From contig DATBWD010000247.1 in NCBI GenBank assembly GCA_036515015.1, forward strand, positions 1 to 44,704: a stretch of DNA of 44,704 bases, read 5' to 3'. Shown here piece by piece: positions 3,486-38,688 of the stretch (position 1 is its first letter; the number at the start of each line of letters is the position of its first letter). The position numbers and the translations under genes are program-made. This DNA comes from Tepidiformaceae bacterium (GTDB lineage: Bacteria > Chloroflexota > Dehalococcoidia > Tepidiformales > Tepidiformaceae). The notes below the pieces were generated by a model. It had not been told where the DNA came from. It saw only the letters and a program-made list of their open reading frames with translations, and did not search any database.

Positions 3486-3490
3486 TGGGC

Positions 3491-8785: not shown

Positions 8786-8873
8786 CATCGAGAGTCAGGG
8801 GTGCAACTGCTGTGGCTGCCTGACTGTGCTGGCGGTCATCGCAGTCTGTGTCCTTATGCTCGTGATAATCTAG
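8775..8873 (+). CDS. 32-aa Cys-rich hydrophobic peptide
   Basis: MPNDIESQGCNCCGCLTVLAVIAVCVLMLVII. It overlaps the previous small ORF by 11 nt and ends 8 nt before the SIS gene start. I see no clear SD. Confidence 0.3.
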   Translation: MPNDIESQGCNCCGCLTVLAVIAVCVLMLVII

Positions 8874-8881
8874 GAGGCCCA

Positions 8882-11680: not shown

Positions 11681-11697
11681 CCCACAGGGGCTATACT
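11669..11697 (+). promoter_or_regulatory. sigma70/sigmaA-like promoter candidate
   Basis: TTGAAT (11669-11674), an exactly 17-nt spacer, then TATACT (11692-11697). It straddles the terL stop. The next gene starts at 11712, giving a leader of only about 8 nt. Confidence 0.4.
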
Positions 11698-11711
11698 CAC
11701 CGGGAGAATCG

Positions 11712-12167: not shown

Positions 12168-12176
12168 GAGGGTCGC

Positions 12177-14888: not shown

Positions 14889-15446
14889 ATGAATCTGGCG
14901 ATCTGCCTTATCCACAACCGGACGGCGCTACAGAATCGCGGCCAGATCACGGCCATTGCCAATCTGGTCGTTTCCAATTACCTGCCGCTAGGTTCGACCT
15001 CTGAGGAATATGAGGAGAGGTACTACACCATCGCGGGGCTGGCGGTCCCGCACGTCGCCAAGTTCTATCAGGTCCTGCCCTTCGGCGTGAACCGGCCGAA
15101 CAACATGGAGACGCTCGACTCGCACAATGTCATCTACGGTGCGAGGGACGAGAACAAGACGGGTACACATCCCCGCTTTCGTAATTGGTCGATCAAGCGC
15201 GCCTGTGACCACGGCGCGGATGTTGTCGCCCTCGTGACTGACCACGCGCAGTTCACCGTTGCTGGGCTAACCCTCCAAATCGCCCGGCTGGTGGACCGGC
15301 GCTTGCTAGTCCTGCCACTGTGGGGCCTAGCCGTGTCCTGCCGCCTGTTCCCGCTGATCGGCCAGTTCCGGGAGGACCTAAACGCCGTCGACGCCTTGGC
15401 TGATCTTCGGGCGCGCATCCTCGCCGCCGGGTGGGAGGCAGACTGA
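14889..15446 (+). CDS. hypothetical protein (weak GT-A-like motif)
   Basis: The ATG follows AGGAGAA. The gene is visibly more A/T-rich than its neighbours. RFRNWSIKRACDHGADVVALVTDH loosely resembles the RN-x-G...DxD region of GT2 enzymes. Very tentative. Confidence 0.55.
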   Translation: MNLAICLIHNRTALQNRGQITAIANLVVSNYLPLGSTSEEYEERYYTIAGLAVPHVAKFYQVLPFGVNRPNNMETLDSHNVIYGARDENKTGTHPRFRNWSIKRACDHGADVVALVTDHAQFTVAGLTLQIARLVDRRLLVLPLWGLAVSCRLFPLIGQFREDLNAVDALADLRARILAAGWEAD

Positions 15447-18400
15447 TGGCCCGGCTGATGTCCTTCCCGTTCGAACTGAACACCATCGCCGCTTCTATGG
15501 ATTGGCAAACATCGACGACTGGTACGCCAGTCATTGAGACCACAGACTTCCGCTCCGGCGCAGCGGCGCTCAGGATCAACAGCGCTGCTGGCGCGGAGAA
15601 CATCCAGCACATCTTCCGCACGACGCAAGGACCGTGTTGGACTCGGTTCTACTTCAAGGTGGTGGCTGGCGCTACCGGCAACGACGTTACGATCATTGCA
15701 ACTCTGAATGGTGCTACGGCCCGGGTAGGGGTTCTTATCAATGCTGACGAGACACTGGAGTTCTGGAACCTGGAGGACTCCGCCCAGGTTGGAGCCAGTT
15801 CGTCAGCGATCAGTTTAGACACTTGGTATCGTCTTGAATACCTCATTGACTCGACCACATTGGCCTCCACCGCTATCGAGGCTAGGCTGTACGCGGCCTC
15901 GGACGAAAGCACCCTGCTGTGGAATCCATCGGGGACGATTAACTTGGCCCTCAACCCCGACCGCTTTCGTCTGGGCATCCCTTCGGCCGATGCCACGTTG
16001 GACATCATCTACGAAGATGGAGCGATCAACGACAACAGCGGTAGTTTCGAGAACTCCTGGCCGGGCGAAGGCGAGCAGATCATGCTCCGGCCGAGCGCCG
16101 CGGGCGACAACGCGGATTGGACGCGGGGCGGAACGGACAGCGGGGCCAACTGGTCGCAGGAAGAGGAGGCCCCACCCGATGACGTGACGACCTACGTTCA
16201 GAGCAATACCTCCGGTCAGATCGACGACTACAACCTGGACGCGACGCCCGCGGCGATGGCCTCCGATGATGTCATCAACTGCGTTCAGGTGGGCGTGCGG
16301 TTTGCGATCAGCGGCGCGGGTGGCGCGGACCCGGACTTCGTGCTGCGCATCAAGGCCTCGTCCGGGGGCACGGTCGAGGAAAGCGCCGCCCTTTCTGGTG
16401 CTGGCGACACCTCCTACCAGTCTTACAAAATAGCCACGCCTAGGCAATATGCGCTGACGCTGTATGACTTGCCCGGCGGGTCCGCGACGGCGTGGACAAA
16501 AGCCGACTTAGACGCGGCGCAGGTCGGCATACGCGAGACGATCACGGATACCCACTTCGTCCGGGTATCGGCGCTGTGGGTGGTGGTAGACCACAAGCCA
16601 GCGGCCGCTGGCGGCCAGACCATCCCGGTCGGCCAGGCGACCGAGGCCGACACCGCCCAGGCCATCACGCTGCTTCGCACCTACCTGATCGCCCAGGTAA
16701 CCGAGACCGATCTCGCCCAGGCCATCAGTGCGGTGCGGGCCTATGCGGTGGGCCAGGCCAGCGAGACAGATCTCGCCCAAGCCGTCGTGGTCCTTCGCAC
16801 GTACCTGATCGGGCAGGCGTTCGAGACCGATCTCGCTCAGGACATCGGCCAGCCCGCAAAGGTCAATCAGGTCCTCGAGACGGATCTCGCTCAGGCGATT
16901 ACGGTTGTCAAGGCGCTGTTGCTGGGCCAGGCTACCGAGGCTGATCTCGCGCAGGCCATCGCCGTTCTCAAGTCCCTGACTGTAGGACAGATCCAGGAGA
17001 CGGACCTCGCCCAGGCCATCGCCGTTCTCAAGTCCCTGACTGTAGGACAGGTCCAAGAGGCTGATCTGGCCCAGGCCATCACAGTCGTCAGGAGCCGTCT
17101 GCTCGGGCAAGCCAGCGAGACCGACGTTGCCCAGGCCATCACGGTGCTCAAGGCGGCGCTGATCGGCCAGGCGAGCGAGACAGACCTCGCCCGCGCCATC
17201 ACGATATTGCGGACGGTACTAGTTGCTCAGGTCCAGGAGACGGACCTCGCCCAGGCCATCACTGCCCTGCTGGGGCGTGTGGTTCAGCAGGTGCAGGAAA
17301 CGGACTTGGCGCAGGCCATCACAGTCGTGGCTGGGGCTGCTCCCATCCCGCCGCCCGCGCCGCCCGCGCCTCCGATGGTGGTGGTGGGCCGCGTCCGTCG
17401 GCGCCGGGAAGAGCCGTCGGCTCCAATACGGCGGCTGATCGACGAACTGTTCGAGCCAGCCCGGCAGGCCGAGTTACGGCGGATCGAGGAATTGCTTCGA
17501 GAGGACGATGAGGAGATCCCGCCGCCGGCCTCCCGGCCATCCCCGAAGGGGCTGGGTGAAGTCGGTCTCGAGGACCTGATCCGGGCGTCCAAGGGATACG
17601 AGAATCTGGTGGCCGACATCGCCGTGGCGGTGACCAAGGCCATCAACCTTCCGGGCCTGAAGGAGTATTTGAAGGTTCAGGATGCCCGAGTAGCGGCCAT
17701 TGAGAAAGGACCTACGGCCCCGGACCGGGGTCCTTCGGTTGATGCTCTAGCCCCGGACCGGGGTCCTTCGGTGGATGCTCTAGCCCCGGCCGAGGCAGCA
17801 CGCCTCTACCAGGAGATGGTCGGCGAGATGATGGGCCTGATCGACCTTGACGTCCCACCGCCGACGATGACAGCAGAGCGGCGGAAGGAGATCCTCTCGA
17901 AGCCGGGCATTCACGCGACCCAGGTCGCCATCCTCAAGCAGACCCGTGCCCGGCCGCTCCGAACCAAGTACGAGAAGCGCCTCGCCGCCCTGATCCGGCA
18001 GTTGGCGACCGGCGAATTGAACGCGGCCGAGTTCATGGACTCGGCTTTCCAGGCGACCGTTGATGCCTATTGGGATGCCTTCGGCGATGGACGGGACGCT
18101 GGCGGGGTGGAGGAGGCGGTCGAGGTCTACTTCCACGAAGGCGGGATCGTGGCGGCCCAGGTCGTGTGGGCCGGCCAGAGCCTGCAGAAGATCATCGCCC
18201 TGCTGCCGGCTGGCCACAGCGATGGGGACCTGCAGGAGGCGCTCCGTCGGGTGCCGACCATGGCATCGGCCATCGAGGTACTCTGGTACGAGGGTCTGGG
18301 GACGGCTGCCGATGACCCTCTGTACGAGTGGATCATCGGGAGCACGAAGGAGCACTGCACAGACTGCCTCGGGTATCATGGGCAGCGGCACCGGCTGAAG

Positions 18401-18529
18401 GCATGGATCGCCGCCGGGGCGATCCCACAGTCTTATCCGCTGGAATGTCACGGCTTCGAATGCAAATGCGAGTTGCGGAAGAGCCGTGGCCATGAGGTTG
18501 GAACGCTACGATCGCCGGGGTTGAACTGA
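15446..18529 (+). CDS. multidomain minor head protein with C-terminal MuF/SPP1-gp7-like domain
   Basis: ATG 15446 (TGATG overlap) lies 7 nt after GGGAGG. The first 380 aa or so are beta-rich and possibly lectin/jelly-roll-like. Then come about 12 x 20-aa repeats, a Pro-rich linker, a 41-aa module shared with 19141..21171, and a C-terminal WIIGSTKEHCTDCLGYHG...PLECHGFECKCEL resembling the MuF H-x-N-C-R-C end. Confidence 0.7.
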   Translation: MARLMSFPFELNTIAASMDWQTSTTGTPVIETTDFRSGAAALRINSAAGAENIQHIFRTTQGPCWTRFYFKVVAGATGNDVTIIATLNGATARVGVLINADETLEFWNLEDSAQVGASSSAISLDTWYRLEYLIDSTTLASTAIEARLYAASDESTLLWNPSGTINLALNPDRFRLGIPSADATLDIIYEDGAINDNSGSFENSWPGEGEQIMLRPSAAGDNADWTRGGTDSGANWSQEEEAPPDDVTTYVQSNTSGQIDDYNLDATPAAMASDDVINCVQVGVRFAISGAGGADPDFVLRIKASSGGTVEESAALSGAGDTSYQSYKIATPRQYALTLYDLPGGSATAWTKADLDAAQVGIRETITDTHFVRVSALWVVVDHKPAAAGGQTIPVGQATEADTAQAITLLRTYLIAQVTETDLAQAISAVRAYAVGQASETDLAQAVVVLRTYLIGQAFETDLAQDIGQPAKVNQVLETDLAQAITVVKALLLGQATEADLAQAIAVLKSLTVGQIQETDLAQAIAVLKSLTVGQVQEADLAQAITVVRSRLLGQASETDVAQAITVLKAALIGQASETDLARAITILRTVLVAQVQETDLAQAITALLGRVVQQVQETDLAQAITVVAGAAPIPPPAPPAPPMVVVGRVRRRREEPSAPIRRLIDELFEPARQAELRRIEELLREDDEEIPPPASRPSPKGLGEVGLEDLIRASKGYENLVADIAVAVTKAINLPGLKEYLKVQDARVAAIEKGPTAPDRGPSVDALAPDRGPSVDALAPAEAARLYQEMVGEMMGLIDLDVPPPTMTAERRKEILSKPGIHATQVAILKQTRARPLRTKYEKRLAALIRQLATGELNAAEFMDSAFQATVDAYWDAFGDGRDAGGVEEAVEVYFHEGGIVAAQVVWAGQSLQKIIALLPAGHSDGDLQEALRRVPTMASAIEVLWYEGLGTAADDPLYEWIIGSTKEHCTDCLGYHGQRHRLKAWIAAGAIPQSYPLECHGFECKCELRKSRGHEVGTLRSPGLN
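16631..17340 (+). repeat. in-frame tandem repeat, 60-nt period, about 12 units
   Basis: The consensus peptide is x-E-T-D-L-A-Q-A-I-x-V-L-(K/R)-x-x-L-(I/V)-G-Q-(A/V). One unit is 54 nt. There is a 39-nt perfect repeat at 16952-16990 and 17012-17050. Confidence 0.95.
17591..17713 (+). repeat. dispersed repeat copy A (41-codon shared module)
   Basis: My hand alignment gives 106 of 123 nt and 36 of 41 aa identical to 20857..20979 (KGYENLVADIAVAVTKAINLPGLKEYLKVQDARVAAIEKGP). Confidence 0.9.
17717..17791 (+). repeat. 33-nt tandem duplication (2 units plus a partial third)
   Basis: GCCCCGGACCGGGGTCCTTCGGT(T/G)GATGCTCTA occurs twice, then GCCCCGGCC. It encodes APDRGPSVDAL twice. Confidence 0.9.
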
Positions 18530-22654: not shown

Positions 22655-22663
22655 CCTGACCAC

Positions 22664-22704
22664 GGAGTGAAGGGAGGGGCGGGCAACCGCCCCTCCGTCA
22701 CTCC
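22664..22704 (+). terminator. strong GC hairpin after the capsid gene (terminator or mRNA-stabilising stem)
   Basis: A 10-bp stem (22673-22682 / 22687-22696) around the loop GCAA, extended by a 7-bp stem (22664-22670 / 22698-22704) across a small internal loop. No U-tract follows. Confidence 0.45.
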
Positions 22705-22771
22705 CCGGAGCGCCTAGGGCAGTCGCGCACCTGCCCGAATGCGGTTGCTCCCGGCCGCTGGCGCTCCGGGG
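22703..22771 (+). repeat. 12-bp inverted repeat bracketing about 45 nt
   Basis: CCCCGGAGCGCC (22703-22714) and GGCGCTCCGGGG (22760-22771). Confidence 0.6.
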
Positions 22772-22803
22772 GTTTACGGGAGAGAAAGGCCTCGGGAGGG
22801 CCT

Positions 22804-23373
22804 ATGAACAGTCCCCTCGAGGGCCAGGACTATCTGGCCCACCTCGCACAATTTGACGACTGGAACGCTCGAGCATTCCTCGCCATCATCGTGGCGTTCG
22901 GCGCGCCCATGACTTATCTGGACGTCGGATGCGGCACAGGTGCCATGATCCGTATGGCTCGGCGGCTAGGTATCGACGCCGTCGGCCTGGACATCCTAGC
23001 CCCGCCGAACGCGGATCTCCACGGCATCATGAAGGTGGACGTTTCCCGCGAGTTCAATATCCTTCGGAAGTTCGCCCTGCTCACCTGCATCGAGGTGGCC
23101 GAGCACATCCCGGAGGATCAGGGAGGCATGCTGATCCGCAATATCGCCGAGCACGCCGCCGAAACATGTCTGCTCATCTGGACGTCCGCCGGCCCCGGCC
23201 AGGGGGGGGAGAACCATCAGACGCTCGTTCCCGGCTACGTCTGGCGGTCGATGCTCCATGACCACGGGCTACACTACAACGAGGCCTGGACCCACCGGCT
23301 ACGGCTCATCTGGCAGGCCATCGGCATGCCCATGATGTGGCTGCCGGATAACCTACAGGTGTTCGACCGATGA
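22804..23373 (+). CDS. class I SAM-dependent methyltransferase
   Basis: Motif I is YLDVGCGTGAMIRMARRLG, with an acidic post-I residue (GLDI). 189 aa. Confidence 0.8.
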   Translation: MNSPLEGQDYLAHLAQFDDWNARAFLAIIVAFGAPMTYLDVGCGTGAMIRMARRLGIDAVGLDILAPPNADLHGIMKVDVSREFNILRKFALLTCIEVAEHIPEDQGGMLIRNIAEHAAETCLLIWTSAGPGQGGENHQTLVPGYVWRSMLHDHGLHYNEAWTHRLRLIWQAIGMPMMWLPDNLQVFDR

Positions 23374-24362
23374 TCATCACCCGGACGCCGCTACGCGTGT
23401 CCTTCATCGGTGGCGGGACGGACCTGCCAGCCTGGTACGAGAACCATGGCGAGGGGCAGGTGTTCGGCGCCACCATCGGATTGTACGTCTACGTGATCGT
23501 CAGCCCCCACTGGAATCCGCACCGCTACCGGGTGGCCTACAGCCGCACCGAGGACGTCGACAACCTCGACTATGTGAGCCACGGGATCATCCGTAATGCT
23601 CTGCGCCGGGCTGGCCTGACCCTTGGGGGCGTGGAGATCCACACGATCGCCGACATCCCTGGCCAGGGATCTGGGCTTGGATCGAGTGCCGCCGTCGCCG
23701 TCGGGACGCTGAAGGCGCTATTCGACTATCAGAAGCGCTACCTGCACTTTCAGGACCTGGCGGCCATGGCGGCCGCCATCGAGATCGAGGACCTTCGAAC
23801 GGGTGCCGGCAAGCAGGACCACTACATCGCCGCCTACGGTGGGGTGAACCACTTCCGGTTCAGTAATGCCGATCCGCTCGTCAGCGGGGGGGGCGGCTAT
23901 GTCGACGAGAAGATCCGTGATCATTGGTCGAAATGGATGCCGCTGTTTTCCACGGGCATCCATCGCCACGCCGAGCCAATCCTCAAGGAGACCGGGAAGC
24001 GCATCAAGGCAGGTATGGCGACGGGCGCCCTGCAGCGCACGCTGGCCATGGTCGAGCCGATGAAGTTGGCGCTGCTCTCCGGCGAGATGGAGGCGGTTGG
24101 CGAGATGCTCGACAAGGCGTGGAAGCACAAGCAGGCAGCCAACCCTGATGCCATGCCGGCCGGTGCCGTCCAGATGTACCGGAGGGCACTCGAGGCCGGG
24201 GCGCTGGGTGGCAAGTTGTGCGGCGCCGGCGGCGGAGGCTACTTGCTGCTGGTGGTACCGCCCCGGAAGTGGCAGGCCGTGGCCGACGTTGTGGGCCAGC
24301 AGCCCGTGCGGGTGCCCTACGGGGTTGGCGGAAGCACCACCATCTTCGTGGAGCAGCGATGA
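23370..24362 (+). CDS. GHMP-family sugar kinase (heptose-7-phosphate / sugar-1-kinase-like, HddA-like)
   Basis: ATGA overlap. The N-terminus is RTPLRVSFIGGGTDLPAWY. GHMP motif II is PGQGSGLGSSAAVAVG. Also present are GKQDHY and the C-terminal GGKLCGAGGGGYLLLV. Confidence 0.8.
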   Translation: MIITRTPLRVSFIGGGTDLPAWYENHGEGQVFGATIGLYVYVIVSPHWNPHRYRVAYSRTEDVDNLDYVSHGIIRNALRRAGLTLGGVEIHTIADIPGQGSGLGSSAAVAVGTLKALFDYQKRYLHFQDLAAMAAAIEIEDLRTGAGKQDHYIAAYGGVNHFRFSNADPLVSGGGGYVDEKIRDHWSKWMPLFSTGIHRHAEPILKETGKRIKAGMATGALQRTLAMVEPMKLALLSGEMEAVGEMLDKAWKHKQAANPDAMPAGAVQMYRRALEAGALGGKLCGAGGGGYLLLVVPPRKWQAVADVVGQQPVRVPYGVGGSTTIFVEQR

Positions 24363-25012
24363 CCGCCTGGCCGACCATCGGGGTCGCCCTGCTGACTTAC
24401 CGTCGCACCGACCTCGCTCTGCGGACTGTGCGGGCCATGATCGGCAACCTCGTCTATCAGGGGCCGCTGGTCTGGTATATCGCCGACGACGGATCGGAAG
24501 ATCAGCACATGAGGGCATTGCTCGAGGTGCTGGGCGGGCATCTGATCGGCTTCCACAGCGAGCGTGTGGGACCGGGGCCGTCCTGGAATCGGGCGGTGGA
24601 GGCAGTCATGAATGCGACGCCCTTCGTCCTATGGCTCGAGGACGATTGGGAGTTGCGGCGCCCGCTGAATATCGAGCCATACGTTGACCTGCTGATGAAC
24701 AACGGCCAGGTGGGGATGGTGCGGACGGGAGGCCTGCCCATCGGCCTGCTGGCGGAGAGCGTGGGCTACGGCGGCGTCCACTACCTGAACATCCTGAAGG
24801 ACCGCCAGTACTGCTACTCGGGCAATCCAAGCCTGCGGCACTCTCGTCACTTTGCCGCCTATGGGGGCTACCCGACCGACCAGCGCCCGGCCGGCGAGTG
24901 CGAGGTGTTCCACGACCACTTCGTCCGCACCCGGCCTGGACCAGAGGTCTGGTGGCCTGTCGACATCGGGGGCTGGGGGATCTTCGGCCACATCGGGACC
25001 GAGAAGGCATAG
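24359..25012 (+). CDS. GT-A fold (family 2-like) glycosyltransferase
   Basis: ATGA overlap, in frame with track ORF 24218..25012. Contains IGVALLTYRRTDL...YIADDGSED and LEDDWEL (DxD-like). Confidence 0.65.
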   Translation: MTAWPTIGVALLTYRRTDLALRTVRAMIGNLVYQGPLVWYIADDGSEDQHMRALLEVLGGHLIGFHSERVGPGPSWNRAVEAVMNATPFVLWLEDDWELRRPLNIEPYVDLLMNNGQVGMVRTGGLPIGLLAESVGYGGVHYLNILKDRQYCYSGNPSLRHSRHFAAYGGYPTDQRPAGECEVFHDHFVRTRPGPEVWWPVDIGGWGIFGHIGTEKA

Positions 25013-25020
25013 GAGGCATC

Positions 25021-25185
25021 ATGTCGAACGAACTCGCCGCGCTGATCATGGGACTGCTGATCGCCGGGCTGGGCTACGTTCTGGGCCGGCAGGTAGGCTG
25101 GGCAGCCCATCGGCGGGCTGAGCAAGACGAGCGAGACCAAGCCAGCGCCAACATTGACCGGGCCATCCGTGAGTGGTTCGGATGA
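25021..25185 (+). CDS. 54-aa membrane protein
   Basis: The ATG follows TAGGAGG. The TM segment is LAALIMGLLIAGLGYVLG, followed by a charged helix. Below the track threshold when counted from this start. Confidence 0.55.
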   Translation: MSNELAALIMGLLIAGLGYVLGRQVGWAAHRRAEQDERDQASANIDRAIREWFG

Positions 25186-26084
25186 ACATCCTGCTGACGG
25201 GAGCGAGGGGATTCATCGGCCGGCATACCATGGCGGACCTGCTGGCCGCCGGCCACACGGTCCGGCCGCTGGACCGGAAGCCAGATCCCGACATGCCCGG
25301 CGGCGGCATCTGGTACGACCTACGGGATGCGGACCGGCTCGGGCTGGCCTTCGAAGGCCGACGTTACGATGCGGTGATCCACCTAGCCGCCAGCGCCAGC
25401 CTGCAGCACAGCATCGACGATCCGGCCGACGATGCCGAGCACAACATCCTCGGGACGATCAACTTGCTGGAGGCCTGCAAGCGACACGGCATGGGGCGCT
25501 TCGTGTTCGCCTCGACATCGGCCGTCTATTCCCCCTATGGGGATCTCCCCTACCAGGAGGACGACCCGAAAGGGCCGCAGAGCGCCTACGGGGTCAGCAA
25601 ACTGGCTGGCGAGGACTACGTCCGGCTGGCTGCCGTATCGGGCCGAGGCATGAGCATAGCCATCCTGCGGTACGGGAACGTCTACGGGCCAGGGCAGAAG
25701 GCTGTCGGGGAGAATGCGTTGGTGGCCCGGGCGCTGGATCACATCTACTTCGGGACGCCCTTCGTCATCAACGGCGACGGCGATCAGACGCGGGACTGGA
25801 TTCACGTGCGGGACGTGGCTCGAGCAAACCGACTGGCGGCTGAGCGGCAGGTTCCGATCGTGGCCAACATCGCCACCGGCGAAGGCAAGTCGGTGAATTG
25901 GGCCCTTGGCGTGCTGGCGGCCGCCGCCGGCTGGCAGGACATTTTCAAGACGCACGGGCCGGCGAAGCCAGGCGAACTCCGGGACGTGCGATTACACTGC
26001 GCGCAGGCGAGCATCGGACTTGGCTTCGTGGCAGAGATCCCGGCGGCAGAGGGCTTGACGGATACGGCTGTCGCATGGGCCTGA
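25182..26084 (+). CDS. NAD-dependent sugar epimerase/dehydratase (extended SDR)
   Basis: ATGA overlap. Contains the Rossmann motif LLTGARGFIGRH and the catalytic YGVSK (YxxxK). Confidence 0.85.
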   Translation: MNILLTGARGFIGRHTMADLLAAGHTVRPLDRKPDPDMPGGGIWYDLRDADRLGLAFEGRRYDAVIHLAASASLQHSIDDPADDAEHNILGTINLLEACKRHGMGRFVFASTSAVYSPYGDLPYQEDDPKGPQSAYGVSKLAGEDYVRLAAVSGRGMSIAILRYGNVYGPGQKAVGENALVARALDHIYFGTPFVINGDGDQTRDWIHVRDVARANRLAAERQVPIVANIATGEGKSVNWALGVLAAAAGWQDIFKTHGPAKPGELRDVRLHCAQASIGLGFVAEIPAAEGLTDTAVAWA

Positions 26085-29062
26085 AACTAGCCATCGTCCC
26101 GTGGTTCAACCACCCGGACCGGGGGGACGGCGGCATCCGGCGCGTGGTCGAGGCGCAGGTTCGGTACCTGCGGGACTACGACGTCGAGCCGATCGAGAAC
26201 GCCGACGAGGCCGATGTGCTCATGTGCCACGGCACGTCGCTGGTTACCCGCCCAGGAAAGCCCGTGGTCAATTGCAACCACGGGCTGTACTGGAGCCGTT
26301 ACGATTGGCCCCTGTGGGGCGAGGAAACCAACGCCCTGGTCATCGATGCCATGGCGAACGCCCAGGCACATACGGTGCCCAGCCGATGGGTTGGGGACGC
26401 CGTGCGTCGGGGCATGCTCGTGTACCCCGAGGTGATCTATCACGGGGTCGAGTACGACGAATGGCAGGGTGAGCCGGGCAAGCACGGCGGCTACGTTCTG
26501 TGGAACAAGGCCCGGACGGATGCGGTGTCGGACCCGGCCGATATGAATCAGGTGGCGGCGATGCTACCGAAGCGGTGGTTCGTGTCCACCTTCGGCAACC
26601 CGGCGCGCAACGTCCGGCTGGTCGGCAAGCAGGCCCACAGCGTGATCAAGCCGCTGGTGGTGGAGGCGGGGGTCTATCTGGCGACCACCCGCGAGACCTT
26701 CGGGATCGGGACGCTCGAGGCGATGGCTGCCGGCGTTCCAATCGCCGGATGGGCCTGGGGCGGGCAACTCGAGATTGTCCGTCAGGGCCAGACGGGATAC
26801 CTAGCCCCGCCCGGCGATCACCGGGCGCTCGCAGACGCCATCGAGGCGTGCATCGCAGAGCGGACGCGCCTGTCGGCGAATTGCAAGGATGACGTTCAGG
26901 AGCGATGGCTCTGGCCAGACAAGATCCGCCAGTACGCCATGCTGATCCACCGGGTCCACGAGGCCTATCACCGGCCCGGCCCCCGGGTGTCGGTGATCAT
27001 CACCTGCCACAACCTGGCCCGGTTTGTGGGCGAGGCCATCCGCTCAGTCCAGTCTCAGTCCTTCGAGGATTGGGAGTGCATCGTCGTCGACGACGCCAGC
27101 ACGGACCCGACCAAGGAAGTGGTGGAGATCCACTGCGCGGACCCCCGCGTCCACTATTTGCCGACGCCGGCAAACTTGGGCCTGTCGGCTGCCCGCAACT
27201 TCGGCTACCGGGCCAGCCGGGGGCGGTATGTGGTGTTCCTCGATGCCGACGACATGATGGCGGACAACGCCTTGGCCATCCAGGTGGAGGCGCTTGACAC
27301 TCGTCCCGGCATGCACATCGTGACGGGTGGGCTGGAGATCGTCGATGATGGGGGCAAGAACCGGCACCGGAACGACTGGCCATCCGGCGCCTACAACTGG
27401 TTCGGTCAGATGGCCCACATGAACCAGATTCACTACTCGAGCATGATGCGCCGGGAAGTGATGGAGCGCTCCGGCGGCTACCGGGTGCGGGACTGGCGGG
27501 CCGAGGACGCAGCCCTGTGGTGCCGGGTGACGTCGCTGGGCTTCCGGGCCGTCCGGGTGACCGATGCGCCCACCCTGATCTACCGGGACCGAAGCGACTC
27601 CAAGTCTAAGGGCGAGCCGGGGGACGGGCCTTGGACCGAGGCGTTCGGCTGGGCGCTGGCCTACAAGTTCGACCGCACCCTGTCGGTCGCTGCGGCCCGC
27701 GGGCACCATCCTAACCCGGATGTTGTTCCGTTCGGGGCGCAGGGGTCGCCCGCCCCCCACAAGGCGTGGCCGGTGCATGATTACGCCAACCCATTCGTGT
27801 CGGTGATCATCCCGGTGGGACCGGGCCATGAGCGGTACGTCATCGACGCTCTGGACTCGCTACTGGCCCAGCGCTTCGTGAATTGGGAGGCCATCGTCGT
27901 CAACGACACGGGCCGGCTTTGGGCGCAGGGCTTCGACAGCCCGCTGGCCGGCGCGCCGTTTGCCCGGATCATTACAGCCAGCCAGCACCTAGGACCGTCC
28001 GGTGCCCGAAACTTGGGGGGGAAGTACGCCCGGGGGGAGGCGCTGCTCTGGCTGGACGCCGACGACTATCTGATGCCGTTGGCCCTCGACAAGATGGTGG
28101 CGGCCTACGTCGAGAGTGGCCGGGTGATCTACACCGACGTCTACCAGCGGTTCGCTGACGACAGGAAGCCCATGGAGCCTTACGTCACCGAGGACTTCGT
28201 GTGCGGGGCGGTACTCAAGCGCATGCAGCACACCTCGCAGGTGTTGGTGCCTCGGGCGGTCCATGAAAAGATAGGAGGCTTTGACACCACGGCACCGGGG
28301 TGGGAAGATTGGGACTACCTCATCGCCCTACAGCATCAGGGGCTATGCTCTCTCCGCATCCCTGAGCCGCTGTTCGTCTACCGCAAGGAGAGCGGGCAGG
28401 TCCGGGAGAAGGCGTGGGCCAGCCGGGAGCAGAACGTCAAGTGGATTCGCAACAAATGGTTGCCCTACTACGAAGGGAGGATGGAGATGCCTTGTAGCAA
28501 GTGTCCTCAGCCGGCCGACGGAGCGCGGAAGCCCCAACAGGTGTTGTCCGCGGCTTCGGGCGGCGGATCATCGGGCGCGTCGACAGACGCGGTGCTCATG
28601 GCCTATCAAGGGCCGGGGCCGAAACGTATGGCTATGCGAGGGAAAGTCACCGGGACGGTCTACCCCTTCAAGCAGGGCGAGTTCCGGTACGTCGATGCCC
28701 GCGACGCTACTGACTTCCTAGGGCGCGTGCGGGGGGACGGATCGCATGATTTCCTGCTGAAGCCGAAGCCCGTCCTGCCCAGCGTGCCGCCGCCAGCCGA
28801 AATGACAGTGGCTGGCCCGCCGCTTCCTCTGCCCGTGATGGGCGTCGACATGGCGGTCGGTGAGGACCATGGAGGAATAGCGGAGATCCACGTGAGGATC
28901 TCAGACCTCGACGAGGCTGGAGCGAAGGCGCTTGCCCGGACGGCCAACCCGGAGGACTACGAGGCGCTGATCGCCGAAGAGGAATCGGGCAAGCATCGGC
29001 CGAAGGTCCTCAATTCGCTCAAGTACTGGCAGAGGATGCGGGGCGAGAGGGCGACGGCTTGA
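26075..29062 (+). CDS. three-module glycosyltransferase (GT4-like GT-B + GT2 + GT2) with unassigned C-terminal region
   Basis: ATG 26075 overlaps the epimerase end by 10 nt, in frame with track ORF 25898..29062. The GT-B E-x7-E region is ETFGIGTLEAMAAGVPIAG...QGQTGYL. GT2 module 1 is VSVIITCHN...VVDDASTD...LDADD. GT2 module 2 is VSVIIPVGPG...VVNDTG...LDADD. The last 200 aa or so have no motif I recognise. Confidence 0.8.
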   Translation: MGLKLAIVPWFNHPDRGDGGIRRVVEAQVRYLRDYDVEPIENADEADVLMCHGTSLVTRPGKPVVNCNHGLYWSRYDWPLWGEETNALVIDAMANAQAHTVPSRWVGDAVRRGMLVYPEVIYHGVEYDEWQGEPGKHGGYVLWNKARTDAVSDPADMNQVAAMLPKRWFVSTFGNPARNVRLVGKQAHSVIKPLVVEAGVYLATTRETFGIGTLEAMAAGVPIAGWAWGGQLEIVRQGQTGYLAPPGDHRALADAIEACIAERTRLSANCKDDVQERWLWPDKIRQYAMLIHRVHEAYHRPGPRVSVIITCHNLARFVGEAIRSVQSQSFEDWECIVVDDASTDPTKEVVEIHCADPRVHYLPTPANLGLSAARNFGYRASRGRYVVFLDADDMMADNALAIQVEALDTRPGMHIVTGGLEIVDDGGKNRHRNDWPSGAYNWFGQMAHMNQIHYSSMMRREVMERSGGYRVRDWRAEDAALWCRVTSLGFRAVRVTDAPTLIYRDRSDSKSKGEPGDGPWTEAFGWALAYKFDRTLSVAAARGHHPNPDVVPFGAQGSPAPHKAWPVHDYANPFVSVIIPVGPGHERYVIDALDSLLAQRFVNWEAIVVNDTGRLWAQGFDSPLAGAPFARIITASQHLGPSGARNLGGKYARGEALLWLDADDYLMPLALDKMVAAYVESGRVIYTDVYQRFADDRKPMEPYVTEDFVCGAVLKRMQHTSQVLVPRAVHEKIGGFDTTAPGWEDWDYLIALQHQGLCSLRIPEPLFVYRKESGQVREKAWASREQNVKWIRNKWLPYYEGRMEMPCSKCPQPADGARKPQQVLSAASGGGSSGASTDAVLMAYQGPGPKRMAMRGKVTGTVYPFKQGEFRYVDARDATDFLGRVRGDGSHDFLLKPKPVLPSVPPPAEMTVAGPPLPLPVMGVDMAVGEDHGGIAEIHVRISDLDEAGAKALARTANPEDYEALIAEEESGKHRPKVLNSLKYWQRMRGERATA

Positions 29063-29391
29063 TGCTTGCGCTAACCCCCATCTCTCTGCTACTGTTGGTG
29101 TTGGCGACATGGCGCCTCTCGGCGATGATTGCTTACGAGGTTGGACCGTGGCGCTTGTTCGTTCGACTGCGGCGACTCGTGGGTATTGAACCCGATGACG
29201 CAGGCCGGCCCGCCGCATGGAATCCAGACGCTTTCCTGGCCGGCCTGTTCGTGTGTCTCTGGTGCGTGTCGGTGTGGGTCGGGCCTGCGCTAATGGTGAT
29301 GGTGGTAGTGTGGCCGCCAGCGCAGTGGTTGCTGACGCCACTGGCATTGAGTGCGGGAGCGATCCTAGTTGAGCGGCTCGCGCGGGGCTGA
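29062..29391 (+). CDS. DUF1360-like integral membrane protein
   Basis: TGATG overlap (alternative start TTG 29059). It has three hydrophobic segments, and ATWRLSAMI...LFVCLWCVSVW resembles the DUF1360 signature (memory-based). Confidence 0.6.
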   Translation: MLALTPISLLLLVLATWRLSAMIAYEVGPWRLFVRLRRLVGIEPDDAGRPAAWNPDAFLAGLFVCLWCVSVWVGPALMVMVVVWPPAQWLLTPLALSAGAILVERLARG

Positions 29392-29403: not shown

Positions 29404-30612
29404 ATGAGCAGGGCGATCATCCGCACGTGGCTTCCTCTCGACCGATGGCGTGAATACTTTGGGATCAACCCATTGCACTTCGCCCAAGCGTTCTCGGCCA
29501 AGTTCCCCGGCCAGGACTGCGGCGACGTGTGGTTCCAATACGCGTGGCAGCACAGCAATCAGGTGGGGCGCCACGAGTTGGCATCGGCGATCCACTCCGC
29601 CGAAAAGGCCATCGCTGACCAGGTCAAATACAACCTGATCCCCGACTGGACGGCGGCGGAGAAGGTGAAACTCCCTCGGCCAGCCCGTCGAGAGGTGTAC
29701 TTTGCCGACGTCGGCAACATTCGCGGGCAGGCCCGCAGTCTCGAGGTGCAGCGGGGCCACCTGATCGCCCCCGGATACCGAGTGAAACAGACGATCACCA
29801 CCGGGCTGGCATTCGCCCGGGCCGACAATGACGGCGACAGTTACGATGAGGACTGTCTCGCCACATTCGCCACCGCCGTCACCGACCCGTGCGAGATCCG
29901 CATCTACTATCCGGGGCACGAGGGCGAGGACGAGTGGGAGATCCGGCCAGCCACGGTCGAGATCGCCGCCGGGATAGCCAGCGTGTCATTCAAGGCATGG
30001 CTGGCCATCGACCCGGATCTGCAGGAGGGGCTGGCGCCTGGGCCGATCGACGGCGACGTCAGCACCAACTACATCACGACGGTCGACGTCTACCGGGTCT
30101 ACACCGACCCCTCGACGGAAGGCCAGATGGTGTGGGAAGGATCGCCCGGCTCTTGCGGCGCATGCGTCGCCTGCAGTGTCGGGCTACAGGATGCCTGCGT
30201 CGGCTTTCGGGACGAGGAGATGGGCTACGTTACGCTGACGCCGGCCACATACGCCGACGGCGAATGGACGCCAACGGCGCTGGCGACATGCCGCGCGCCG
30301 GACCGAGCGCGGCTATACTACCTGTCGGGCTGGCAGGCCCAGGACGTGGCCTGCTCGATGAAGGACATGGACCGCTACTGGCTCGAGGCGGTGGCTCGGT
30401 ATGCGGCGGCGCTACTTGATAGGCCGGTGTGTTCGTGCAATAATACCGAGAACTTCATCAAGGAGCAGCAGAGGGACATCGCTGCCGTGAGGACGGGGAT
30501 CATCTTCCAGGTGTCGAACGACTCGCAGGTGGCAAATCCGTTCGGGACTTGGGTCGGCGCGCTCTTCGCGTGGATGCGTGTGAACGGCAAGGGAAGGGCG
30601 CTACCGAAGTGA
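29404..30612 (+). CDS. hypothetical virion protein (head-tail joining region by position)
   Basis: The ATG follows AGGAGAGCAGG. 402 aa, with no recognised motif. Confidence 0.6.
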   Translation: MSRAIIRTWLPLDRWREYFGINPLHFAQAFSAKFPGQDCGDVWFQYAWQHSNQVGRHELASAIHSAEKAIADQVKYNLIPDWTAAEKVKLPRPARREVYFADVGNIRGQARSLEVQRGHLIAPGYRVKQTITTGLAFARADNDGDSYDEDCLATFATAVTDPCEIRIYYPGHEGEDEWEIRPATVEIAAGIASVSFKAWLAIDPDLQEGLAPGPIDGDVSTNYITTVDVYRVYTDPSTEGQMVWEGSPGSCGACVACSVGLQDACVGFRDEEMGYVTLTPATYADGEWTPTALATCRAPDRARLYYLSGWQAQDVACSMKDMDRYWLEAVARYAAALLDRPVCSCNNTENFIKEQQRDIAAVRTGIIFQVSNDSQVANPFGTWVGALFAWMRVNGKGRALPK

Positions 30613-33253: not shown

Positions 33254-35755
33254 ATGGCCTTCCCAACCGTAGGCGTGCTGGCCATCGTCGAAGGCATGAA
33301 CTCCTTCCGCCGCGACATGGACGAAGTCAAGCGGCGGATGGAGCAGTTGGGCCAGACGAGCCAGAGCGTAGCCAGGCAGACCGGAACCCTCTCGACCGCC
33401 ATGGGCGGCGTGGGCGGCGCTCTATCCGCCATCGGGACCATCGCCGCAGGCATCCTAGCCGCCGGAGCCATTCGTGCGATCGCCAACGAGATCAAGCAGA
33501 TGGCGTCGGAGGCCTTTGACGCCGCCGCCCAACTGCAGAAACTCGAGATCCAGTTCAACACGCTGGTGGCCCGCGAGTTGGCAGCCTCCAACAGTACCGA
33601 GGGCTTCGCTGACTACCTGCGGGAAGCCGGGGCGGCCTCCGACTACCAGGTCCAGCGCTTCATCAACCTGCGGAACTCGCACGACAACTTCATCAAGAAG
33701 ATGGCGGAGGTCGACCAGCACACGGCGGCCGGGCGATACGCCTTCGAGCAGTACGGGAATCGACTCAAGTGGGTCGACAGCCAGATCCGCGAACTCATTC
33801 CAGGCTTCGACGGGCTGGACAACCGCCTGCAGCAGTCCGCCTTCGGGACCTACGACTTCTCCGAGGCCCTGAAGGAGGCCGCCGCGCCAGCCCGGGAACT
33901 CCTGAACTGGTCGCTCCAGATGTCCGTGACCACCCCCTTCCGGCCGCAGACCATCAGTAGCGCCATCAGCCTGTCCATGGCCATGGGTTTCCAGACCAAG
34001 GAGATCCGACGGCTGATCACGGCGACGGGCGACTACACCGCCGGCATGGGGCTGAGCGACGAGGTCATGCAGCGCATCCTGTACAACTTCGGCCAGATGA
34101 AGGCGGCCGGCAAGGTGATGGGAACCGAACTGCGAGACCTCGCCCGCGGCGCCATGATGCCTGTGGCGACCGTGCTCGAGATCATGCAGCGCAACATGGG
34201 GCTGACCAACATCTCCCTCGACCAGTTCCGCAAGAACGCCGCCGCAGGCCAATACGACGTCGACCAATTCGTGGAAGCCTTCGTGCAGATGGCCGAGAGC
34301 GACTTCGCCGGGGCCATGAAGCGCATGTCGGGCACGTGGGCTGGGGTGACTCAGGACGTGCAGGACTTCATCAACGTGATCCTCGGCGCCAGCGTGCTTC
34401 GGCCGATCCTCGACAGTCTATCCAAGGGGCTCCGGGGCTTGATCGACAGCATGACGGATGAAGAGACGGCCGCCAAACTGGAGACCACCCGCGGTCTGAT
34501 GAGCAGTATCGTCACCAGCGTCGGAGGCATCCTCACAGCCCTGTCGGGGATGGCTGGATTGAAGATCGAGCCGGGGGGGTTCCTTCAGTCGTTCAATGAT
34601 TTCCTCCGGGGCATCGCCATTCCGATGGCCCAACTGCGAGCGCTTCTGCGAGGCGATTTCAGTTTCGACGAGTGGCTACAGCGCGTTGGGTTCACGGAGG
34701 CGCAGAGCGAGAGCATCAAGGGATTTCTGCACCTGTTTGACCCCGTGATTCAGGGCCTACAGATGCTGTACGATGCGGCCGTCGGACTTGGCCCCACGAT
34801 CAAGCAGACTATCGACGACCTGGTCGCGGCAGTTTCGCCGGTCGTTGCGATCGCATTACCGGGTGTCCTCGAGAACCTCGGCGAGATCTTTGGCGGGCTG
34901 GGGAAGTCGCTGGCGGCCACCGGACCAGGCATCTTGGACATTCTCGGCAAGGTAGTGGCCTTGCTCGCCACGGCGGCCATCGGCACGCTGGATCTCTTCG
35001 TGACTAGTCTTGCTACCCTGCTCGACATCGCCAACGGCGATTGGGCTGGTGCCGCAGAAAACGTCGGGGGGTTCTGGGACAGGTTCCTCGAATCTGCCCT
35101 GTCGCTCGCTGGCGAGACGCCCGAGTCGTTCGCCGAGAGTTGGTCGTGGGTGTGGGAAGCGGCGGGCATCATCTCTGACAGGTTCTGGTCGAATCTGCAG
35201 GAGACGTGGGCGGCGAATGACGACATGCTCCTGCTCATAGTCCAGACCATGATCGCCAACTACTCGGAGCGGCTCAAGACGGATTGGGCAACCTTCCTTG
35301 AGGACATGCTGGGAGGCATCGATGCCTGGGCCGGCGTCTGGGCCAATCTCGAGACCATCAGGCTCGAACTGGTCAAGAGGGGTGGGGCCTTGATCCAGGG
35401 GTTCTGGGACGGTGCGAAGGCCAAGGTCGCCGCGTTCATGACCTGGCTCAGCGGAAAGATCAGCGATATCCTCGCTCTGTGGGACAAACTGCTTGATATC
35501 GGTTCGCCATCCCGAGTGATGGTGGGCATCGGGAAGAACATGATGGCTGGCCTGCAGAAGGGCGTTGGCGAGGGGATGCGTGGCACCCAGGCGGCCATGA
35601 CCGCGGCGGCTGGCCAGCAGGCAGCGGCCCTGCCCGTGATGGCCGGCGGCGGGGCGTCGACATACAACCGCACGATCAACATGGGCGGCGTCTACAATCA
35701 GGGCATCGGGGGCGGAGTGTTCGACCGGGCCATGCGTGACTGGCTGGGAGCCTAG
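33254..35755 (+). CDS. tape measure protein
   Basis: 833 aa. It has Gly/Ala-rich hydrophobic stretches (GGVGGALSAIGTIAAGILAAGAIRAI) and is long and helical. The position is canonical. Confidence 0.85.
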   Translation: MAFPTVGVLAIVEGMNSFRRDMDEVKRRMEQLGQTSQSVARQTGTLSTAMGGVGGALSAIGTIAAGILAAGAIRAIANEIKQMASEAFDAAAQLQKLEIQFNTLVARELAASNSTEGFADYLREAGAASDYQVQRFINLRNSHDNFIKKMAEVDQHTAAGRYAFEQYGNRLKWVDSQIRELIPGFDGLDNRLQQSAFGTYDFSEALKEAAAPARELLNWSLQMSVTTPFRPQTISSAISLSMAMGFQTKEIRRLITATGDYTAGMGLSDEVMQRILYNFGQMKAAGKVMGTELRDLARGAMMPVATVLEIMQRNMGLTNISLDQFRKNAAAGQYDVDQFVEAFVQMAESDFAGAMKRMSGTWAGVTQDVQDFINVILGASVLRPILDSLSKGLRGLIDSMTDEETAAKLETTRGLMSSIVTSVGGILTALSGMAGLKIEPGGFLQSFNDFLRGIAIPMAQLRALLRGDFSFDEWLQRVGFTEAQSESIKGFLHLFDPVIQGLQMLYDAAVGLGPTIKQTIDDLVAAVSPVVAIALPGVLENLGEIFGGLGKSLAATGPGILDILGKVVALLATAAIGTLDLFVTSLATLLDIANGDWAGAAENVGGFWDRFLESALSLAGETPESFAESWSWVWEAAGIISDRFWSNLQETWAANDDMLLLIVQTMIANYSERLKTDWATFLEDMLGGIDAWAGVWANLETIRLELVKRGGALIQGFWDGAKAKVAAFMTWLSGKISDILALWDKLLDIGSPSRVMVGIGKNMMAGLQKGVGEGMRGTQAAMTAAAGQQAAALPVMAGGGASTYNRTINMGGVYNQGIGGGVFDRAMRDWLGA

Positions 35756-37810: not shown

Positions 37811-38688
37811 TGAGCCTAGCGAACATCGTCGTCCTGCACAACCCAGCCACGCTTTGGGAGCGGTACCGCCGCAACATCCCTATCGCCCAGATCGCCGATT
37901 GGAAGATGGTTGAGCGGGAAGAGGGTGGCTACTACTCAGCCACCTTCTCTTTCCGCCCGAAGAGCCGGGAGGACGCGCTGGAGTTCCTCAACAACGGTCC
38001 CGGACGCATGACCGAGTTCTACAACCACCGGGGCATAGGCGACTGGGAGGGGATGGTCAAGCGGGTAAGCATCGACACGGGCATCGTCAAGGTGACCAAT
38101 GACCTTGCCGACATGGCCAACGCGGTGCTGGTGCGCTACTCCCCGGTGGGCGGCGGGTCCCCTACCCGTAGTGCAGTCAAGACGCACGCCGCCAGCCAAA
38201 CTCGGTTCGGAAAGAAGTACTTCGTTCTCTCCGGCGGAGAGTTGGCGGCCGCCGTCGCTGACCAGCGCGCGCAACTGTATCTCGACCAGGTATTCTGGGC
38301 TTCGCCACGGCTAGAGAGCGTCGACCAGGGCGGCAAGTTCAAGGCTGAGGGAATTACCGTCGACGTGCAGTGCATTGGCCTGAGCGAGGCGATGGACTTC
38401 GTGCTCTACAACCAGACGGCACTCACTGGTCAGGTAGACGCCTCCGTAGTCGTGACGGCCATATTCACCAACGCCGAGGTGATGCAGTTCATCAAGTCCT
38501 ACGAGGTGGCGACCAACGTCACGCCGGTCAGTCGGGAGTTCGATAACGATCGCCGCCCGATGGAGATCCTCAAGAGCATCGCGTCTCTCGGCGACAGCAA
38601 CCGCAATCCCTACGTGGTCGGGGTTGAGGGTGACCGGCACGCGTACTTCCGGCAGGGCGTGCCATATCGCATTCCGGGGCAGACATGA
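37810..38688 (+). CDS. minor tail protein
   Basis: TGATG overlap. 292 aa. Position-based call. Confidence 0.55.
   Translation: MSLANIVVLHNPATLWERYRRNIPIAQIADWKMVEREEGGYYSATFSFRPKSREDALEFLNNGPGRMTEFYNHRGIGDWEGMVKRVSIDTGIVKVTNDLADMANAVLVRYSPVGGGSPTRSAVKTHAASQTRFGKKYFVLSGGELAAAVADQRAQLYLDQVFWASPRLESVDQGGKFKAEGITVDVQCIGLSEAMDFVLYNQTALTGQVDASVVVTAIFTNAEVMQFIKSYEVATNVTPVSREFDNDRRPMEILKSIASLGDSNRNPYVVGVEGDRHAYFRQGVPYRIPGQT

Follow-up and report, generated by a model that had tools for sequence, protein, structure and literature searches.

Virion glycosylation has reportedly been demonstrated in tailed phages only recently and only in a few actinobacteriophages, where it is said to alter recognition by antibodies; for the Cluster F phage Che8, glycosylated virions are credited to Freeman et al. 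2023 (as cited in PMC11600133 and PMC13313380). That study is said to have found Ser/Thr-rich C-terminal tails on the acceptor proteins. Among the enzymes of the chlorovirus PBCV-1, A064R combines two glycosyltransferase (GT) domains with a methyltransferase domain. Another protein of this virus, A111/114R, contains three GT domains and serves the capsid glycans (PMC7826918). In the Cluster O mycobacteriophage Corndog, an O-methyltransferase and three GTs (gp35-38) are encoded inside the structural operon, between the genes for portal and protease (PMC4351075). The Corndog enzymes are soluble and late and were not found in virions, and their proposed product is a methylated glycan on capsid and tail subunits (PMC4351075). 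Here we describe a cassette of sugar-modifying enzymes in a 44,704-nucleotide stretch of DNA (contig DATBWD010000247.1 of assembly GCA_036515015.1; hereafter, the window), which is a segment of a tailed-phage genome of ~52 kb, with a GC content of 65% and every assigned gene on the + strand. The cassette consists of seven + strand open reading frames (ORFs) that fill positions 22804-29391 exactly, between the capsid gene and the tail genes (Table 1), and its central product is a triple GT with one GT4 and two GT2 domains. We favor, with a probability of roughly 0.55, the reading that this cassette is a phage-encoded, late-expressed system for glycosylation of the phage's own virion proteins. 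As judged from its genes, it appears to be a known kind of system in a distinct variant, with non-homologous enzymes, a triple-GT fusion, a novel C-terminal module and a conserved membrane partner.

Table 1 Features of the window and their positions (refined start codons are given in the remarks).
Feature	Positions	Strand	Remarks
ASCH-domain protein	853-1257		
N6/N4 DNA methylase	7306-8625		
GmhA-like SIS-domain sugar-phosphate isomerase	8882-9436	+	SIS_2 1e-8; 13 kb upstream of the cassette
TerL	10235-11680	+	followed by a probable portal gene
1032-aa head-module protein	15431-18529	+	phrog_14065 match; counterpart in locus L028 is MuF-like
676-aa protein	directly 5' of the capsid gene	+	scaffold or protease, presumed from position
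Major capsid protein, HK97 fold (predicted), 480 aa	21212-22654	+	left border of the cassette; candidate glycan acceptor
Structured intergenic region	22655-22803 (149 nt)	+	hairpin, then ~55-nt conserved block, then ribosome-binding site of the methyltransferase gene
Class I S-adenosylmethionine methyltransferase (I1)	22804-23373	+	Methyltransf_23 4e-10; GCGTG motif
GHMP sugar kinase, HddA/WcbL-like (I2)	23370-24362	+	GHMP_kinases_N/C
Divergent GT-A (GT2-like) glycosyltransferase, 217 aa (I3)	24359-25012	+	
54-aa protein, one predicted transmembrane segment (I4)	25021-25185	+	GGAGG ribosome-binding site
Extended short-chain dehydrogenase/reductase (SDR), NDP-sugar epimerase/dehydratase, GalE-like, 300 aa (I5)	25182-26084	+	start ATG 25182; Epimerase PF01370 6e-59, 199.8 bits
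Triple glycosyltransferase GT4+GT2+GT2, 995 aa	26075-29062	+	start ATG 26075; GT4 aa 1-290; GT2 aa 300-500; GT2 aa 570-800
DUF1360 membrane protein, 109 aa (I7)	29062-29391	+	start ATG 29062; PF07098 26.6 bits vs cut-off 21
402-aa structural-module protein	29404-30612	+	right border of the cassette; head-tail joining presumed from position
~100-aa gene	between the 402-aa and 499-aa genes	+	
Presumed major tail protein, 499 aa	30924-32423	+	C-terminal Ycf48/BNR-like beta-propeller; candidate glycan acceptor
Tape-measure protein	33254-35755	+	preceded by a chaperone pair
495-aa tail protein	38685-40172		DNRLRE domain 58.5 bits vs cut-off 34; Disaggregatase-repeat-like region
GH25+M23+SH3 endolysin	after the tail and fibre genes	+	
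LCP-family (LytR-CpsA-Psr) glycopolymer transferase	43036-44145	+	after the endolysin gene and a 102-aa ORF

The locus resembles the actinobacteriophage systems in that a phage-encoded methyltransferase and soluble GTs stand inside or beside the structural operon and are, in the window, late by position. Specifically, the combination known from Che8 and Corndog, methyltransferase and GTs expressed with structural genes, is found here as a methyltransferase and four GT domains coupled to those genes by sequence. The two nevertheless differ in several respects. No sequence homology is detectable between them, and the module lies between the capsid and connector genes here but between the genes for portal and protease there. 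The window fuses three GT domains into a protein of ~1000 aa with its novel C-terminal module, adds precursor genes (kinase, epimerase, GmhA-like isomerase) and a conserved membrane protein, and offers candidate acceptors without obvious Ser/Thr-rich C-terminal tails. Additionally, every examined member of a very large clade has the module, whose precursor part is hypervariable. An earlier reading of this DNA from its letters alone (the sequence-only reading) had called metabolic islands rare at this position in tailed phages; the O-methyltransferase and three GTs between portal and protease in Cluster O phages are a precedent (PMC4351075). With PBCV-1 the locus shares virus-encoded, organelle-independent glycosylation, a multidomain GT fusion with ~300 aa per domain, some precursor enzymes of its own, and a methyltransferase acting on the same glycan, for which a methyltransferase-GT4-GT2-GT2 fusion in the relative L062 is the counterpart. 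PBCV-1 differs as a eukaryotic giant virus whose capsid is of the double-jelly-roll type and whose glycans are N-linked, in contrast to the ~50-60 kb tailed phage with an HK97 fold considered here. A further likeness is found in the O-glycosylation of serine-rich repeat adhesins, in which a GT4 initiator (GtfA/B) is followed by GT-A extenders (Gtf3, GalT1 and other GT2/GT8 enzymes) in the cytoplasm; that pathway is bacterial and has a dedicated export route, the similarity is at the family level only, and the window shows no evident acceptor rich in serine.

The seven ORFs were all confirmed, as were their boundaries, their coupling and their place between the capsid and tail genes. At five of the six internal junctions neighboring genes overlap at start and stop, with ATGA at the methyltransferase/GHMP kinase, GHMP kinase/I3 and I4/SDR junctions, 10 nt at SDR/triple GT and TGATG at triple GT/DUF1360; the sixth, between I3 and I4, is an 8-nt spacer containing GGAGG. 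Beyond the cassette, a 12-nt spacer with AGGAG joins the DUF1360 gene to the 402-aa structural gene. The starts of the SDR, triple-GT and DUF1360 genes were refined, and independent gene calls on identical contigs give the same starts. No + strand promoter or terminator consensus was found inside the cassette, and no terminator between it and the downstream structural genes. The GC content across the cassette is 0.635-0.670, compared with ~0.65 for the window. The sequence-only reading had described an island inserted into the structural module, and this part of it does not hold: the composition is flat, and the cassette is ancestral to the clade and a vertically inherited part of the structural module. 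A recent insertion, or moron, was rejected on composition and on conservation in all relatives; of the features that mark a moron, atypical composition, sporadic distribution and a terminator of its own were not seen, and the hairpin and conserved block upstream may include a promoter.

To place the cassette in its clade, we read ~30 loci (designated by L numbers) from IMG/VR, JGI, ENA, Logan and collections of metagenome-assembled genomes (MAGs), which span capsid identities of 26-100% and GC contents of 40-70%. Among GenBank phages, neither megablast of the cassette nor tblastn of the capsid protein gave a match, and there is therefore no annotated relative. Presence of the cassette in relatives, which had been proposed as a check, was borne out, since sugar genes lie 3' of the capsid gene at every locus that is readable far enough. 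Where the sequence reaches far enough, the capsid gene is followed by the variable stretch, the triple GT, the DUF1360 gene (not detected in L065), the 402-aa gene and the 499-aa tail gene. The conserved core comprises the GT4+GT2+GT2 fusion of ~900-1050 aa, usually a small divergent GT-A enzyme, and the DUF1360 protein; the capsid gene and the triple GT lie 72 bp apart in L063 and 9.5 kb apart in L059, the two extremes. Across 25 loci, some of them redundant, the identity of the capsid protein to that of the window is correlated with the corresponding identity of the triple GT at r = 0.94. At the two most distant loci the triple GT retains 33-35% identity, compared with 26-29% for the capsid protein, and the triple GT is thus conserved at least as well as the capsid protein. 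Because the gene order is fixed and the identities co-vary in this way, the triple GT and DUF1360 genes form a core of the structural module that is ancestral and has been inherited vertically.

The stretch between the capsid gene and the triple GT is far less uniform. The set seen in the window (methyltransferase, GHMP kinase, small GT-A enzyme and SDR) recurs, with insertions, in L002, L004, L006, L008 and L011-L013. In L016, L019 and L035 the stretch instead encodes a PseB/CapD-like dehydratase, an ATP-grasp protein, a PIG-L deacetylase, a formyltransferase, two methyltransferases and a GT2; in L028, a dehydratase, a cytidylyltransferase-like protein, several GT2s and an APH-like kinase; in L033, a dehydratase, a nucleotidyltransferase (NTP-transferase), a methyltransferase, a GHMP kinase, more methyltransferases and an SDR; and in L015, a dehydratase and an RmlD-like reductase. 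No genes separate capsid and triple GT in L063. A locus with 29% capsid identity, binned as Anaerolineae (L062), carries at 9239-12811 a 1190-aa fusion of Methyltransf_23, GT4, GT2 and GT2 domains, whose methyltransferase domain is weakly similar to that of the window; this fusion appears to tie methylation to the product of the triple GT. Bacterial loci for surface glycans and for flagellin glycosylation are laid out in the same way, with a conserved transferase core beside precursor genes that can be swapped. Two inteins were observed in these loci: a LAGLIDADG intein splits a Polysacc_synt_2 sugar dehydratase in the L059 cassette (7218-9278), and a head-region protein of L035 (1030 aa, 2223-5315) carries an Intein_splicing domain.

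The clade is large. At 90% identity the capsid family falls into at least 717 clusters, and at 50% identity into 712; the clusters listed are all unannotated and on contigs of at most 62 kb. The triple GT has at least 2257 homologues, of which the best 120 are all on contigs of at most 62 kb. A scan of 185,579 GTDB species-representative genomes returned nothing for the capsid protein; for the triple GT, the GTDB representatives gave only phage-like contigs in MAGs of seven discordant lineages. When the triple GT was compared by tblastn with 50,697 phage records, only weak GT2-domain matches were returned, and no actinobacteriophage was among them.

Pfam, PHROG and NCBIfam searches agree with the gene-by-gene annotation of the sequence-only reading. 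The motifs that it quoted are all there, with one correction: the triple GT carries NDTG in place of DAS in its second GT2 domain. The triple GT belongs to the GT4 and GT2 families, with matches to Glycos_transf_1 (PF00534, 6e-14) and twice to Glycos_transf_2 (PF00535, 1e-50 overall). In 26 homologues, the GT4 motif E205-x7-E213 is invariant, as are D388, D390 and D659-D662 of the GT2 motifs DDAS/DAD and NDTG/DAD, with D337 and D338 nearly invariant. The second GT2 domain matches GalT1 (5hea, 2e-11), and the best NCBIfam GT2 models for the cassette (TuaG, EpsE, PglI, WcaA) act on lipid-linked glycans. The C-terminal ~200 residues include a CxxC that is invariant; in an AlphaFold2 model (predicted local distance difference test score, pLDDT, 80) they form a small beta domain, confidently predicted, and a three-helix bundle. 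Searched against PDB and BFVD, this model gave no significant match; the similarities that came up, at E > 0.01, extend over ~50 residues and are to small phage proteins that are uncharacterised.

The small GT-A enzyme I3 has no Pfam match on its own. Its family profile, built from 11 orthologues, matches GT-A structures including chondroitin synthase (1e-5) and SpsA, and its orthologue in L016 matches PF00535 at 3e-8, so that it belongs to GT2 at the profile level only. Of the acidic residues in its DDGS/EDD motifs, E94 and D96 show no variation, and D43, D44 and D95 hardly any. By these conserved motifs, all four GT domains of the cassette are predicted to be catalytically intact. The possibility that I3 is a missing nucleotidyltransferase was rejected, since relatives carry an NTP_transf_3 gene together with an I3 orthologue and the I3 profile matches glycosyltransferases. 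The SDR, with GARGFIG and YGVSK motifs, is a member of the extended SDRs; it reaches 141 bits with the GalE model, below the cut-off of 262 for a GalE equivalog. The methyltransferase is a putative glycan O-methyltransferase.

All enzymes of the cassette are without transmembrane (TM) segments, and only the 54-aa ORF and the DUF1360 protein are hydrophobic. Beyond contigs of 100% identity, the 54-aa protein was not found: the closest relative, L004, lacks it, as do all other relatives. Its match to holin_2_4 is below the cut-off, and it is lineage-specific and probably outside the conserved system. The DUF1360 protein has two hydrophobic stretches with room for 2-3 TM helices, and tblastn places it between the triple GT and the 402-aa gene in all relatives that reach there except L065. 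In the Gordonia phage Zipp, a weak DUF1360-like match (29% identity, E 1e-3) adjoins the portal gene with no GT annotated nearby, which suggests that the family can occur in head modules apart from glycosylation.

Additional evidence on the sugar itself comes from the kinase and from a gene outside the cassette. The best NCBIfam model for the kinase is HddA (NF049969), at 128.5 bits vs a cut-off of 600; the protein is therefore a member of the GHMP superfamily below the level of an HddA equivalog, and its best PDB sequence matches are the heptose kinases 3k85, 4n3o and 4usk. The GmhA-like gene adjoins the DNA methylase gene and the terminase genes and lies between them, an arrangement shared by relatives of the L002 type, whose kinase-bearing members also have GmhA-like genes. 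Its product belongs to SIS_2 (35.5 bits vs 27); the four best NCBIfam models are all GmhA, each below its cut-off (TIGR00441 59.8 bits vs 209), and it thus falls short of a GmhA equivalog. This isomerase is likely the partner of the HddA-like kinase. The suggestion of a heptose route made by the sequence-only reading therefore gains from the GmhA-like gene, but the pathway is incomplete: no GmhB-type phosphatase, HddC or nucleotidyltransferase was found in the window or in the rest of the ~52-kb genome, although in some relatives an NTP-transferase gene adjoins the methyltransferase and kinase genes. A comparable set occurs in the Caulobacter phage Cr30 (NC_025422), where an epimerase, a GT, a D,D-heptose 7-phosphate kinase and a phosphoheptose isomerase are clustered. 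These are the same four enzyme types, with identities to the window proteins of 35% (kinase), 31% (isomerase) and 27% (epimerase), and no phosphatase or nucleotidyltransferase is annotated nearby in Cr30 either. Cr30 differs in its 156-kb genome and in the location of the cluster among non-structural genes at the genome end, and the window isomerase is 13 kb away from the kinase.

The 480-aa protein whose gene borders the cassette on the left matches nothing in Pfam or PHROG. Its profile found nothing among PDB sequences, and its fold therefore had to come from structure prediction. The AlphaFold2 model, built with 42 homologues (pLDDT 72, predicted template-modelling score 0.72), gave Foldseek matches in PDB of which those listed are nearly all capsids of phages or satellites, plus a few HK97-fold encapsulin shells (E to 2e-10). 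Because the model matches phage capsids almost exclusively, we take the protein to be, as predicted, the HK97-fold major capsid protein. Its gene has the highest GC content at third codon positions (GC3) in the window, 0.91.

The spacer between this gene and the cassette is strongly structured (minimum free energy -95.2 kcal/mol, z = -5.35 vs shuffled controls). Directly 3' of the capsid stop codon stands a 17-bp GC hairpin, which relatives have at the same position in a different sequence; with a U-tract after it, the hairpin of the L002 group forms a canonical intrinsic terminator. Further downstream, the ~55-nt block 22714-22768, CTAGGGCAG.CGCGCACCTG.CC.G.AA.GCGG..GCTCCCG.CCG, is nearly invariant in the window, L004, L005 and L006, in which the flanking proteins are just 47-76% identical, and occurs once in the window. 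Rfam returned nothing at gathering thresholds, only a sub-threshold match of the intergenic element to the int-alpA RNA (27.4 bits vs 35.8). The block may act as a promoter, in antitermination or as a regulatory RNA. From the hairpin we infer an arrangement for high capsid expression with lower read-through into the enzymes and the downstream connector and tail genes.

In the pathway that we propose, the GmhA-like isomerase and the HddA-like kinase would make heptose bisphosphate, which host enzymes, or in some relatives possibly the cassette NTP-transferase, would turn into NDP-heptose, and the GalE-like SDR would supply an epimerised NDP-sugar. The GT4 domain would start the glycan on a virion protein in the cytoplasm, with the capsid protein and the propeller-bearing tail protein as candidates; the two GT2 domains and the small GT-A enzyme would extend it, giving at least four transfers in all. 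The methyltransferase would O-methylate the glycan, and the product would be a methylated oligosaccharide with four or more residues and perhaps a heptose among them. A speculative role for the C-terminal module of the triple GT is to dock the enzyme to its substrate. Different precursor genes would give each relative a different glycan, that is, phage 'serotypes'.

Several lines of evidence argue for virion glycosylation. The position next to the capsid gene appears fixed down to 26-29% capsid identity and across GC contents of 40-70%, and the triple GT has co-diverged with the capsid protein without compositional anomaly. Start/stop overlaps couple the cassette to the head and tail genes, which points to late expression. 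The enzymes are predicted to be soluble, with no export machinery detected, and there is no sign of lysogeny, as no integrase is annotated and the GTDB species-representative genomes gave no prophage copies. Hypervariable precursors beside a conserved transferase core form the pattern that would be expected for an exposed glycan, and the methyltransferase domain fused to the triple GT in L062 is consistent with a methylated product. Other observations weigh on the opposite side. The glycan acceptor among the virion proteins is a candidate only, and the C-termini of the 480-aa capsid and 499-aa tail proteins, the two candidates, are not Ser/Thr-rich. A conserved DUF1360 membrane neighbor would be unneeded in a purely cytoplasmic pathway; the closest named GT2 models belong to enzymes of lipid-linked glycans; the subclade of this phage also encodes an LCP glycopolymer transferase; the triple GT shows no homology to mycobacteriophage GTs by tblastn; and the phosphatase and nucleotidyltransferase steps of the heptose route are missing from the genome. 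On balance, the comparative data favor the virion glycosylation that the sequence-only reading had put forward, with acceptors at the level of candidates. A stronger version, in which the glycosylation machine is an ancestral and obligatory component of virion construction, with a docking module, a DUF1360 partner and swappable precursors that produce glycan 'serotypes', is offered tentatively and must be regarded as doubtful; DUF1360 could then mark a hitherto unrecognised membrane-associated step in head maturation.

The membrane proteins bring in a different explanation, remodelling of the host envelope. Here, the soluble GTs would build a glycan on the host polyprenol-phosphate carrier at the inner membrane face, host transporters or DUF1360 would move it outward, the LCP protein of the subclade would attach it to peptidoglycan, and the altered surface would block superinfection or the re-adsorption of progeny to debris. 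We consider this unlikely, although it keeps real support. GT4 and GT2 combinations are typical of wall-polymer and O-antigen loci, and the lipid-linked substrates of the best GT2 models and the conservation of DUF1360 next to the triple GT fit such a scheme, yet a weak DUF1360-like match also stands next to the Zipp portal gene with no GT annotated nearby. The sequence-only reading had derived a lipid-linked glycan from the two membrane proteins of the cassette; with the 54-aa protein being strain-specific, and without a flippase, polymerase or initiating transferase, this argument is weak, and the conserved DUF1360 protein is what remains of it. More precisely, no Wzx, Wzy, ABC transporter, polymerase, initiating phosphoglycosyltransferase, GtrA or GtrC was found in the window or the rest of the genome. 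The LCP protein is a genuine member of its family (PF03816 62.8 bits vs cut-off 24.6; TIGR00350 slightly below, 53.7 bits vs 62.3) and has an N-terminal TM segment at aa 1-27, but it is a subclade accessory: it has 18 homologues, all from close relatives or short contigs, whereas the capsid protein has at least 717 and the GT at least 2257. LCP as a general partner of the cassette was rejected on this count, and its link to the cassette is uncertain; tblastn found no LCP gene in well-characterised phage genomes, and the few matches are unannotated records that look like host-contaminated assemblies. Seroconversion in temperate phages, by GtrABC-type systems or by acetyl- or glucosyltransferases for the O-antigen, offers a likeness in its phage-encoded GT2 enzymes and small membrane protein, but Gtr genes lie near the attachment and lysogeny region of temperate phages and need GtrA (PF04138), an anchored GtrB and a GT-C GtrC; no Pfam match to GtrA, a membrane-anchored GtrB or a GT-C GtrC was found here, and the GTs lack TM segments. 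Expression with the late structural genes would be poor timing for exclusion, lysogeny genes and prophage copies were not found, and strict linkage to the capsid gene across deep divergence is unexpected of a conversion gene.

It is also conceivable, and in our view decidedly unlikely, that the target is a non-virion protein of phage or host, a small molecule or a storage product, so that the linkage to the capsid gene would reflect shared late expression only. The Cr30 cluster, which does not lie beside structural genes, and the C-terminal module of the triple GT, which has no known fold and no assigned binding partner, leave room for such a target. The adjacency of the triple GT to the capsid gene and their co-divergence for as long as the clade can be traced are at odds with it, as is the hypervariable precursor set, which suggests an exposed product under selection. 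Hypermodification of DNA, in which the GTs would glycosylate modified bases and so evade restriction, is highly improbable. Phage GTs are known to glycosylate DNA (PMC12619734), and this genome has several DNA methyltransferases; but no hydroxymethylase, TET/JBP-like or other base-modifying enzyme was detected in it, the cassette lies in the late structural operon and not with replication genes, there is no similarity to the alpha- and beta-GTs of the T4 type, and four GT domains with sugar-precursor enzymes and an O-methyltransferase fit oligosaccharide assembly.

Downstream of the cassette, the 402-aa gene is syntenic in all relatives, and its product has no match in Pfam, PHROG or PDB. The 499-aa tail protein (PSII_BNR 9e-10, PDB matches to Ycf48, GC3 0.89) is encoded directly 5' of the chaperone pair and the tape-measure gene; it is unusually large for a presumed major tail protein, and its C-terminal Ycf48/BNR-type propeller is kept clade-wide. 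Between the fibre gene and the endolysin gene, a 241-aa protein (40415-41140) has a sub-threshold match to PF01973 (MptE-like/Maf; 25 bits vs 34.6, over 30 residues only), a family that includes flagellin glycosyltransferases. Past the end of the window, as seen in L037 (12821-16804), minus-strand early genes follow, including RecU, a C5 DNA methylase and an MT-A70 methylase. No tRNAs were found, and no integrase domain is annotated in the ~52-kb genome.

Assignment of a host from MAG bins was rejected, as the bins conflict (Zixibacteria, Nitrosotalea, Proteobacteria, Gemmatimonadetes, Methanothrix, Chloroflexota). Contigs of the clade from GTDB genomes (L058-L065) are binned into MAGs of seven unrelated lineages, two of them archaeal (Nitrosotalea and Methanothrix), and this spread is almost certainly mis-binning. 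Chloroflexota account for three of the nine labelled bins; this weak excess is a weak hint to the host.

Together, the comparative data indicate that the module is probably a fixed, deeply conserved and defining feature of a large uncultured phage lineage, with ~700 capsid clusters at 50% identity, and that, beside the capsid gene, it has the conserved-core-plus-variable layout of bacterial surface-glycan loci. The finding gives a functional context to DUF1360 and to the HddA/GmhA pairs of phages. If the proposed reading is true, glycoengineering could draw on this lineage for a soluble and compact enzyme that unites three glycosyltransferases and has a new docking domain. Glycan coats would then be far more widespread in phages than appreciated, beyond the actinobacteriophages, as a general and evolvable surface layer, and in sediments and soils diversifying selection would act on them; since antibodies play no part there, the question arises of what selects them.

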